Source: Octopus sinensis
Taxonomy: Eukaryota
Assembly: GCF_006345805.1 (NCBI RefSeq)
Contig: NC_043014.1
Coordinates: 38,688,001 to 38,752,000, forward strand
Reading direction: 5' to 3'
DNA: 64,000 nucleotides
Part shown: positions 3,136-44,210 of the stretch, one piece after another
Layout of the letters: each line of letters opens with the position of its first letter
How positions within the stretch are numbered: the first letter of the stretch is position 1
Notes under the pieces: generated by a model
Database searches by the model: none
The model's input: the letters and a program-made list of their open reading frames with translations, nothing else
Told to the model about the DNA's origin: nothing
Made by a program: the position numbers and the translations under genes

Positions 3136-3512
3136 GAAGTTTGCTTCCCTAAAAATATGGTTCAGGGTTCAGTCCCACTCTGGGGTACCTTGAACAAGTG
3201 TTTTCTACTATCACCCCAGGCCAACCAAAGCCTTGCAAGTGGTTTTGGTAGATAGAAACTGAAAGAAGCTTATTGAGTGAGTGTGAGTGCCTTTGTGTTT
3301 GTCCTCTAGCTTGACAACCCTATAACTTAGCAGTTCAACAAAAAAGAACAATTTAATAAATACCAGTGTTTAAAACAGTTAGTACTGGGGTTAATTTGTT
3401 CGACTAAAGCCCTTCAAAGAAGTGCCCCAGTATGTGCACAGACCACTAGCTGAAACAGGTAACAGAAATAAAAGGTAATATAAGTATGTGCATAAATATA
3501 TATATATATATA

Positions 3513-3677
3513 GGCACAGGAGTGGCTGTGTGGTAAGTAGCTTGCTTACCAACCACATGGTTCCGGGTTCAGTCCCACTGCGTGGCACCTTGGGCAAGTG
3601 TCTTCTACTATAGCCTCAGGCCGACCAAAGCCTTCTGAGTGGATTTGGTAGACGGAAACTGAAAGAAGCTCCTCGTA

Positions 3678-6289: not shown

Positions 6290-6556
6290 GGTATAACCAG
6301 TAAGATAAAAGAAAGAAAGAGACCTCAATATTATGTAAATAGAGGAAATTTATCTGTAAAATAATATGTGACAATTATTTGGTAGCCAAGATAAAACTCC
6401 GAATTTCGGATGTCGGTGCAGAAACCCACGCCAGCATCTCTTCAGTTATTGGGGCATTTTCATAGTTTTCTTTTTGATGGCCCAATAACTGAAGAGATGC
6501 CGGCGTGGGTTTCTGCCCCGACATCCGAAACTCGGAGTTTTATCTTGGCTATTTTA
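6290..6556. mobile_element. Penelope-like inverted pLTR pair, family H1, between (TA)n tracts
   Basis: Arms at about 6383-6455 and 6477-6553 are reverse complements, and each carries a hammerhead fold. Confidence 0.75.
6484..6544 (+). ncRNA. Type I hammerhead ribozyme motif (H1); mirror copy 6390-6450 on minus strand
   Basis: AATAA CTGAAGA GATGCCGG...CCGACATC C GAAA CTC G GAG TT TTATC. Stem III is ACUC/GAGU, the predicted cleavage triplet is GUU, and stem I is AUAA/UUAU. Confidence 0.7.
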
Positions 6557-41375: not shown

Positions 41376-42033
41376 GTTAATTTTATGTGCTCCACTAACC
41401 CACTTCTTCTCTCTCACTTTTACAGCAATTATTTATTTATCAAGTTAAATGCAGCTGTATGTTGTTAATAATAATATAATTTTTTTTTTCCCAATTTTAT
41501 GGCTGTGTCAGAGGTGAAAAAGCAGTGCCCATGACCTTTACAATCATTGCCAAGATTCTTGGAATGAAAAAGGAAGGAATGTCGAAGGACACAGGCAAGG
41601 AAGTGGGTGAGGAGAACAGTCTAAAGAATTTCATTGCATATGCACATGTTTCTGAGGTTGACCTCACCAATCCGCACCTTGGGAAAATATTATTTCAGGG
41701 GTTTCATCACACCAAGCAGAGGCCAGGGTTGACCAGTTGATCAATATATTGAGAGAGAGAGAGAGAGAGAGATTTGGTAGGTGGAAATTGTGCAGAAGAC
41801 TGGTCGATCTTATATCTTTTACTTGTGCTAGCCATTGGACTGTGGCCATGCTAGGGCACCACCTTGAAGGATTTAGTCAAACAGATCGATGCCAGTACTA
41901 ATCTTTTTAAAGTCTGGTATTTATTCTATCAGACTCTTTTGCTGAGCTGCGAAATTATGGGGCCATAAACAAACCAACACTGGTTATCAAGCAGTGGAGA
42001 AGAGTTTAACGCAGGAATAATTCAAATACTTTT

Positions 42034-42121
42034 ACTTCCGACACAGGTTTCGAAGATTTCACTGATATTATTCCAAAGGAATAAATGGTGTAAAACAATG
42101 TAATCTTTTCTTCAGGGAAGT
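42034..42121 (-). ncRNA. Type I hammerhead ribozyme motif (H5) downstream of GIY-YIG remnant
   Basis: Minus strand reads ACTTCC CTGAAGA A AAGATT...AATCTT C GAAA C CTGT GTC GGAAGT: a 6 bp stem I and a GUC triplet. Confidence 0.75.
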
Positions 42122-42319
42122 GAAGAAATGAAACTCGTCAATAAGACATCTTAACAGAAAATGATGGATATGTATAGTGATTTACTGAACACTATTAATA
42201 TTGTTTGAAAAAACCTTATATAACATCAGAAGTAGCCTATAGAAAGGGGAGGGATTTTTTTTAATGAATGTTAAATATAAAAAGAAAATTAATGTTTAAA
42301 TTGTATATAATAATAGAGA

Positions 42320-42662
42320 TTACTTATAGGTGTGTTTTTGTCAATGTTTACATCGGTATGCACACTCTATAACTGTGTTTACTAGGGGATTTTTAGAAAA
42401 AATAATGAAAAATAGTTCAGAATTGCAGAGAAGACAGAATTCCTTGCCTTTGTCATAAGGTATCGAGATTGAGAGAATCAAAATGTTCATTGTGGTCTTT
42501 TAGATCCCAAATTAATTTGCTGAGCCCTGTACTGCTACGTTTATTTCTATCCCTAAATGTTGAGTAATGGATAGAAATTCTTTTAGATAACTGTAACGAC
42601 GTGCTTCCAATGTAAAATCGTACTTTATTATGAGTACTGATTTTACATTGATATATAGAATT
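42320..42662 (-). pseudogene. Penelope-like retroelement GIY-YIG endonuclease remnant
   Basis: Hand translation NSIYQCKISTHNKVRFYIGSTSLQLSKRISIHYSTFRDRNKRSSTGLSKLIWDLKD, then (frameshift) ILSISIPYDKGKEFCLLCNSELFFIIFSKNPLVNTVIECAYRCKH. This shows IY..YIG, the catalytic R and E, and the CxLC / CxH pattern of PLE endonucleases. Confidence 0.85.
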
Positions 42663-42725
42663 TTATTTGTTAATTGTTAACATGGAAAAATACACTCATC
42701 TATATATATATATATATATATATAC

Positions 42726-43291
42726 GCGAGAAAGAAGCAACAAGAATGGATAGGTATTTAGTACGATCGTTTCATACAAGGACAGGTTTTATTAAAAGTT
42801 GCAAAGATTACAGCATATAAACGAGTCCCGTACTCATCAGCTAAAATACATGTAAGTTCTTTAGACATCCTAGTGTTTGAGGCTATACTCATGAAGTAAT
42901 GTAGATAATTAAACAGATTTCTAAAGTTCATTAAAGTTCTTTAAGATGATGTACAGTCTTATCACAGAATTTTAAAAAAGTTTTGATAGCATCACAGAGA
43001 AGGTGACCTAATCCATATGAATTTCCATATCAAAACTTTTTTAAAATTCTGTGATAAGACTGTACATCATCTTTAAAGAACTTTAATGAACTTTAGAAAT
43101 CTGTTTAATTATCTACATTACTTCATGAGTATAGCCTCAAACACTAGGATGTCTAAAGAACTTACATGTATTTTAGCTGATGAGTACGGGACTCGTTTAT
43201 ATGCTGTAATCTTTGCAACTTTTAATAAAACCTGTCCTTGTATGAAACGATCGTACTAAATACCTATCCATTCTTGTTGCTTCTTTCTCGC
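42726..43291. mobile_element. Near-perfect ~263 bp inverted repeat (arms 42726-42988 and 43028-43291), Penelope-like pLTR pair family H6
   Basis: The arms are almost exact reverse complements with a 39 bp spacer, starting right after (TA)n. Confidence 0.85.
43172..43260 (+). ncRNA. Type I hammerhead ribozyme with canonical core and extended stem II (H6); mirror copy 42757-42845(-)
   Basis: TTTAG CTGATGA GTAC GGGAC...GTCCT T GTAT GAAA CGATCG TA CTAAA. Stem I is UUUAG/CUAAA, stem III is palindromic ACGAUCGU, and the triplet is GUA. Confidence 0.8.
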
Positions 43292-43412
43292 TTATAATCA
43301 CCCCACATTACTGTATTGTTAAATCAGTATAGTTTTTTTTGGTGCATCTAAGTTAGGTACCATATTCAAGTAAATTTTTTAAAATTAACTTGAATCTTAT
43401 TGCTCTTTTTAT

Positions 43413-43446
<34 letters not shown>

Positions 43447-44210
43447 ATATATATATATGTGTATGTGTATGATAGAGAACCAAGATACATGGCACATTAC
43501 TGTACTCAAGAAGACCTGCCCACCACAACAGAGTTGAGATCCCCAAACCAAGATGCCACATAAAAACACTCGGTATACTCTGCAAAGTGGTTGGCATTAG
43601 GAAGGGCATCCAGCTGGAGAAACCAAACCAAAACAGACTAGGAAACTTGGTGAAGCCCCTGGCCTTGCCAGTTTCCCTCAGTTTCTGTTGACCAAATTCA
43701 CTCACAAAGCATTGGGGCTAAAGTAGAAAATACTTGCCCAAGGTGCCACTCATTAGGACTGAACCTGAAACCATTTGGTTGCAAATGAAGCCTTTTAACT
43801 ACAAGGACGTATCTTTTGCAAAACTTTATATCGATAAACAATGTAAACATCAGCCAGAAAAAAGAAAACAAAACTGATATATTACTTGTGTTGATGAACA
43901 TAAACACCTTATGCTATTTGTTCTGCCCGAGTGGCACAGATAATTCCTTGTCAATCTCGTCAGCACAAAATGCAGTGAACCAGTGATTGCTCTGTTGGAA
44001 ACCTCTAAACAATGATGCTACAGTTCACAATATGTGATGCATGAAAATGTTGAAATAAAATAAAACAAACAACAGCACAAAGTTGTTGTTGTTGTTGTTG
44101 TTGTTGTTATTGCTTAGCCCAAGGTTGGTCCTGACTAGACAGATGCATATATTAAAGCTACAACAATTTTATTGCTTTTCCATTTCGGTTGGAGGCGGGG
44201 TGGTGACTTC

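Follow-up and report, generated by a model that had tools for sequence, protein, structure and literature searches.

PLEs with inverted ends and paired hammerhead motifs have been described in several lineages, and the closest to the family analyzed here are those of the Hydra clade, such as Hydra-1_Obim and Penelope-13_HM, which Craig et al. 2021 define by a set of protein motifs (a C-terminal GIY-YIG domain, RWK, DKT, and a CxCx5C linker, with no CCHH cysteines) together with insertion into (TA)n targets (PMC8557442). Hydra-clade elements bear a 3′ hammerhead, on each strand in the example of Penelope-13_HM (PMC8557442), and inverted, 5′-truncated PLE copies with the tail at one end have already been described (PMC8557442, PMC3846280). 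The PLE hammerheads of Cervera and de la Pena 2014 (PMC4209133) have a type I topology with a short palindromic helix III and occur as opposite-strand pairs 100 to 700 bp apart, with many families per genome. The Anolis Poseidon element PAc of Frangieh et al. 2024 (PMC11167929) has two RT start sites that define its tail, AT-rich targets, and a hammerhead near the element end, and the Adineta vaga Penelopes of Arkhipova et al. 2013 (PMC3846280) have inverted pLTRs with a tail on one of them, palindromic junctions, and Asn-rich inserts between RT and EN. These traits recur in the octopus family described below. How inverted PLE ends form is stated to be unresolved (PMC8557442).

The octopus family also differs from each of these systems. 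Elements of the Hydra clade are generally under 3 kb (PMC8557442), a trait that is typical and not diagnostic, whereas the unit here is ~4.6 kb, with an Asn-rich linker and a 1.5-kb 3′ UTR; Hydra-clade tails measure 30 to 40 nt as opposed to 117 to 118 nt here, and all Hydra rows of file S2 of that paper show short stem II hairpins, whereas stem II here spans 60 nt. By eye, Hydra-1_Obim differs from the present family in both its protein and its hammerhead. Helix II is 6 to 8 bp in PMC4209133, and 6 to 8 bp is the length called "long" in PMC13725137 and PMC6155905, in contrast to the irregular rod of ~20 to 25 bp predicted here. PAc belongs to the Penelope/Poseidon clade, its ORF starts inside the hammerhead, and its start sites are not homologous to the target (PMC11167929), whereas here the ORF begins ~170 nt beyond the proximal end, and each end coincides with a short TA-like motif. 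The Adineta Penelopes have a low copy number and belong to other clades, and the fold-back model proposed for them fits only some of the junctions here (PMC3846280). The literature searched, with Repbase/Dfam and subscription papers outside its scope, describes neither this family nor any cephalopod PLE with a 60-nt stem II; that PLEs can have inverted ends and hammerheads paired on opposite strands is known already, and the family statistics and the putative long-stem-II hammerheads would be the parts absent from that literature.

The locus lies in a 64,000-nt stretch of Octopus sinensis DNA (NC_043014.1, positions 38,688,001 to 38,752,000; hereafter the window), in which a first-pass annotation had noted a young inverted repeat with near-identical 263-bp arms. 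The arms occupy 42726–42988 (263 nt) and 43028–43291 (264 nt), and their sole difference is one indel in an A/T run. Near-identity thus holds, but the extent does not: the element continues to 43408 through a 117-nt tail (43292–43408, + strand) that had been missed, that corresponds to the 5′ UTR upstream of the ORF in full-length copies, and whose counterpart is carried by one arm of every inverted copy examined. Likewise, the apparent 39-nt spacer between the two arms (42989–43027) is element sequence of the left arm, explained by the longer 5′ reach of that arm. The locus at 42726–43408 is a 5′-truncated, tail-out inverted PLE insertion in a (TA)n microsatellite and, as such, ordinary transposon debris. 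Its left side is (TA)n target at 42701–42724, the flank type found at nearly all copy ends, followed by a C at 42725 that lies outside the element sequence. The left arm (42726–43029, − strand) comprises the 3′-terminal ~304 nt of the element up to its proximal, tail-less end, is 98.4% identical to the natural copy L049, and contains a hammerhead motif at 42754–42849; it meets the right arm head to head, both being 5′-truncated, at a 2-nt TA microhomology (43028–43029). The right arm (43028–43291, + strand) holds the 3′-terminal 264 nt up to the proximal end, with a type I hammerhead motif at 43168–43263, and beyond the tail (TA)n resumes at 43410–43460. Cleavage is predicted after 43255 in the right-arm motif and between 42762 and 42761 in its mirror on the left. 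The young element is nested in (TA)n at the end of an older repeat (42002–42700, − strand), which has its own long-stem-II hammerhead motif at 42040–42115 (−), a high copy number (2886 candidates in the genome, with scored copies ~85–90% identical), and is probably the remnant of a sister PLE.

The element unit, ~4.58 kb, consists of a partial pLTR with a hammerhead, a short 5′ UTR, an ORF of ~950 aa, and a 3′ UTR that again ends in the hammerhead; in longer copies the ORF has a YRDD RT and then a C-terminal GIY-YIG. In copy L046, whose ORF is 947 aa long, YRDD is at 355 and VIY..YIG at 826, with RIRWK at 35 and ADKT at 123 (DKG changed to DKT). The CxCx5C linker, the late CxxC, and CxH are present; the CCHH cysteines, a CxxC between GIY and YIG, and the N-terminal GxKF/Y are absent, the sole GxKY match falling inside the Asn-rich linker. 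By eye, the N-terminal half resembles the Hydra proteins of Craig et al. and differs from Hydra-1_Obim, and the copy ends of the family sit in (TA)n, the Hydra-type target. The insertions have the structure of EN+ PLEs, with 5′ truncation, a partial tandem pLTR, an inverted copy, and a tail at one end. Neither RT nor GIY-YIG was matched by Pfam in a 770-aa piece of the ORF; judged from its motifs and a by-eye likeness to Hydra proteins, from which the domain call also derives, the element is a new Hydra-clade PLE family. We rejected Naiad as its home, since the endonuclease is C-terminal here and N-terminal in Naiad, which has no canonical hammerhead. A protein search found 25 relatives among 8000 scored candidates, 24 of them at 31–38% identity and the last, 68% identical over 202 aa, a gene model from Octopus sinensis. 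In that model (P0023), ankyrin repeats are fused to 200 N-terminal aa from the ORF of a sister PLE, a fusion that reflects either exonisation or mis-annotation. A subfamily (L044–L048) lacks ~25 nt of the 3′ UTR (reference positions 3496–3522 of the L034 right arm), and one putative RNA run has a joint with the identical gap.

Searched against its own genome (2.72 Gb), the right arm yielded 945 candidates, and the 43 matches from the 40 that were scored were all 98–100% identical to it. A 20-mer across the hammerhead core has 947 exact matches in the genome and none when reversed as a control, so that the core does not reflect chance. The first 100 matches listed form 62 clusters (35 minus-plus, one minus-minus-plus, one plus-plus, and 25 singles) with motif spacings of 112–5692 nt (median 628). 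In all, 36 of the 62 are minus-then-plus. We fetched 20 pairs along with 20 singles out of the 25; a short or mismatched inverted partner accompanies 12 of the singles fetched, and eight have none. Extrapolated to the genome, tail-out inverted pairs make up about four-fifths of the family insertions, or roughly 500. The insertion had been proposed to be recent, which is borne out by zero substitutions in the 253 sites compared between its arms and by the identity of copies elsewhere, but it is not a lone event: the inverted repeat is an ordinary truncated PLE end with hundreds of copies. Pooled over 46 insertions, the arms differ at 79 of 27,196 sites, and at a rate of 0.0036 per Myr, as quoted in PMC13282606, this divergence would place the age of the family well under a few million years.

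An intact hammerhead core had been claimed for each strand, and all of the motifs named are found where they had been placed, with a mirror copy on the − strand. On the + strand these are TTTAG at 43172, CTGATGA at 43177, GAAA at 43244, ACGATCGT at 43247–43254, GTA at 43253–43255, and CTAAA at 43256. Stem I pairs 43168–43176 with 43256–43263; CUGAUGA (43177–43183) is followed by a stem II domain of 60 nt (43184–43243, with AATAAA at 43224), GAA, and the palindromic stem III (43247–43254). The term canonical was nonetheless too strong, given a stem III of 2–3 bp, a G·U at pair 10.1–11.1, and no match to an Rfam hammerhead model. Rfam returned no hits at gathering in the whole window and no hammerhead among seven hits up to E=5 in 42600–43450, where hits below threshold were to generic hairpins (miRNA models) only; the models probably fail here because stem II is long and stem III is short. 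Across 15 sequences from four related families, three of four stem I pairs are changed on both sides, and the structure, set by hand, pairs in 87% of cells versus 31–46% in slid controls; because the 15 sequences are related, the shuffle control overstates the contrast. RNAalifold on a MAFFT alignment did not recover the base of stem II, and the long stem II is predicted as an irregular rod in each family. With its CUGANGA and GAAA core, UH cleavage site, and three helices with covariation, the motif is by these features a type I hammerhead with a predicted cleavage site. The core was invariant among arms (0 of 1883), but at loci that had been picked by the core 20-mer, and we give this invariance no weight. 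AAUAAA or AUUAAA occupies the same place, 26 nt before the cleavage site, in four related families; it is predicted to be paired within the rod and is missing from other families that have this core, and we do not favor a conserved poly(A) signal. By eye we also noticed a possible pseudoknot between the stem II insert and a downstream GUUGC; the insert is predicted to fold on itself instead.

These hammerheads extend well beyond the family. A genome pattern with a stem II of 45–75 nt and the same palindrome has 4,367 matches versus two in the control, and one with a stem II of 8–38 nt adds another 1,053, again versus two. At least 5,400 hammerhead motifs with the ACGAUCGU palindrome are present genome-wide, in many families and with stem II lengths of 18–70 nt, and many of them also form minus-plus pairs. 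From both pattern counts across many families, stem II length is therefore a continuum and the palindrome is the constant part. The large set of hammerheads with 45–75 nt stem II domains is missed by Rfam. Two more hammerhead-like motifs, from another family, lie in the window at 6489 (+) and 535 (−), with a short stem II and four of five stem I pairs.

The many copies bear on how the inversion arises. Among 62 loci examined, 54 have one arm per strand and eight single-armed loci were dropped; 21 of the 54 had been chosen earlier for being inverted, and none for its ends. The tail is on exactly one arm in all 54, an outcome to which an independent, even choice would give a probability of ~2^-54, and the two outer ends border (TA)n, each at its own fixed site in the element. 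At frequent variant columns covered in both arms, no allele differs between the arms of an insertion (42 of 42), divergence is 0.39% within insertions versus 0.80% between them (0 of 5000 permutations as low), and 35 variants are common to both arms yet private to one insertion. One tail and one haplotype per insertion suggest two primings on one template, not fold-back, although two RNAs from one source locus, or gene conversion between arms, could also give common haplotypes. Double priming fits the in vitro behavior of the Anolis PLE protein, which cuts both strands of the target, extends them, and initiates RT at two positions separated by one tail length (PMC11167929). At tail-less ends, a G precedes (TA)n where the element has T in 38 of 51 cases, including position 42725 of the window; this base may be untemplated, a product of slippage, or the result of a cut preference. 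At another locus (L016, 1790–1910, −), a young-family copy and the hammerhead-bearing end of an element from a sister family directly flank one (TA)n stretch, an instance of repeated nesting in shared microsatellite targets.

The alternative that survives best retains the same element and attributes the inversion to self-priming by fold-back, either of the cDNA or with an antisense strand as template, a route put forward for the Penelopes of rotifers (PMC3846280). That model predicts palindromic junctions, and exact palindromes are present at 13 of the 54 central junctions; the arms overlap by ≥2 nt in 26, meet bluntly in 11, and are separated by added bases in 17. Copying one strand would also yield arms of the same haplotype. 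However, annealing of two same-sense cDNA ends would be expected to produce palindromic junctions as well, and both outer ends lie at (TA)n, at two fixed sites. Moreover, fold-back of a cDNA can only shorten the first arm, whereas the arm that reaches further 5′ is the tail arm in 20 insertions and the tail-less arm in 21, the two being equal in 13. Because either arm may reach further 5′, simple cDNA fold-back is disfavored, and we regard an origin by fold-back as rather unlikely.

We are thus highly confident in reading the locus as a young Hydra-clade PLE inserted into (TA)n as a 5′-truncated, tail-out inverted copy, likely through two RT primings, one per nicked strand, with its hammerheads as passengers that, on transcription, would end up locked in a hairpin. 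Building on the family, its copy number, protein motifs, target, end pattern, and common haplotype, the priming and ribozyme steps may be pictured as follows. The GIY-YIG domain of the element would nick both strands of (TA)n, and each nicked 3′ end would prime on one source RNA, at a short site rich in UA; priming at the distal site would give the tail, and priming 118 nt upstream the tail-less arm. Both cDNAs would stop early and be joined head to head, either at a microhomology or with a small number of bases added. Transcripts of full-length, partially tandem copies would contain two sense hammerheads, which could pair through the ACGAUCGU palindrome and would then cleave weakly or with help from the element protein, in line with reports on other PLE hammerheads. 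The stub in the window would carry one sense hammerhead per strand, masked by its own antisense.

The first-pass annotation had instead pictured self-cleavage in competition with a long hairpin that could be an ADAR or Dicer substrate, and the locus might accordingly be read as a functional RNA switch. Its premise, that a transcript in either direction contains one ribozyme plus its own antisense, is true by geometry, and both hammerhead cores are intact. The competition itself is weak, as the antisense arm always comes first and the hairpin is predicted to be ~140 kcal/mol more stable: a read-through transcript has an energy of −394.2 as the hairpin versus −251.8 in a fold with the hammerhead, a gap of 142 kcal/mol, and even the motif alone favors an inactive fold (−16.3) over the catalytic fold (−9.4) by 6.9 kcal/mol. 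A palindromic stem III of 2–3 bp typically needs a second sense copy (PMC4209133), and in published work cleavage by PLE hammerheads was weak, dependent on dimers, or confined to reactions containing the element protein (PMC11167929, PMC4209133). On these predicted folds, we would expect no meaningful cleavage from the stub in the window. Processing of the hairpin arms by ADAR or Dicer is plausible if the locus is transcribed. Contigs of four runs, only guessed to be RNA, cover 20–27 of the 30 bins of a full-length copy and are deepest at its 3′ end, which is weak evidence for transcription of the family. Octopus has very high hyper-editing, and near-perfect dsRNA loci make up an unusually large share there, in a study that left repeats unannotated; in lizard, Penelope is heavily edited (PMC5625713). 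Against a switch, hundreds of equivalent loci exist with arms of random length, as the range of motif spacings shows; the window locus bears no sign of selection, and no host exon was seen by eye among the 91 ORFs listed for the window. Variants common to both arms and private to an insertion show no A>G excess (seven A>G versus six T>C, p=0.59), so the inserted copies do not derive from edited RNA. A dedicated switch at this locus is therefore very unlikely.

Long-read fold-back chimeras exist, and a palindrome may be an assembly or chimera artefact; none of the short-read DNA contigs listed from four runs bridged the central junction of the window copy, the left flank of which is itself repeat. 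A chimera would mirror the flanks too, however, and the mirror here ends exactly at the fixed element end, the tail is on one arm, the 39-nt spacer belongs to the element, and the same rule is obeyed at 54 loci with differing junctions, which makes an artefact extremely improbable. A non-autonomous retrozyme or MITE is suggested by the short, non-coding, hammerhead-bearing sequence with terminal inverted repeats, but non-LTR retrozymes are tandem non-coding monomers each with a hammerhead (bioRxiv 10.64898/2026.07.22.740005), whereas the arms here are variable 5′ truncations of a coding element, without tandem monomers or a fixed length and extending into the ORF in long copies, and this reading has almost nothing to recommend it.

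Interpreted as PLE insertions, the young family provides roughly 500 near-identical natural events that follow a strict rule of one tail and one haplotype per insertion, and the nearly intact ORFs in its copies suit an in vitro test of how inverted ends form. We speculate further, and tentatively, that double priming may be ordered on a single RNA, with a second RT 118 nt downstream displacing the first cDNA, that the ACGAUCGU palindrome may act as an RNA dimerisation signal, and that hundreds to thousands of perfect hairpin loci may be a major dsRNA source behind octopus hyper-editing, a combination that we consider doubtful as a whole. By a rough estimate, perfect dsRNA from this family alone would amount to 0.5 Mb, or 2e-4 of the octopus genome, and our hypothesis is that the family insertions are candidate hyper-editing substrates and a source of perfect dsRNA in this animal.
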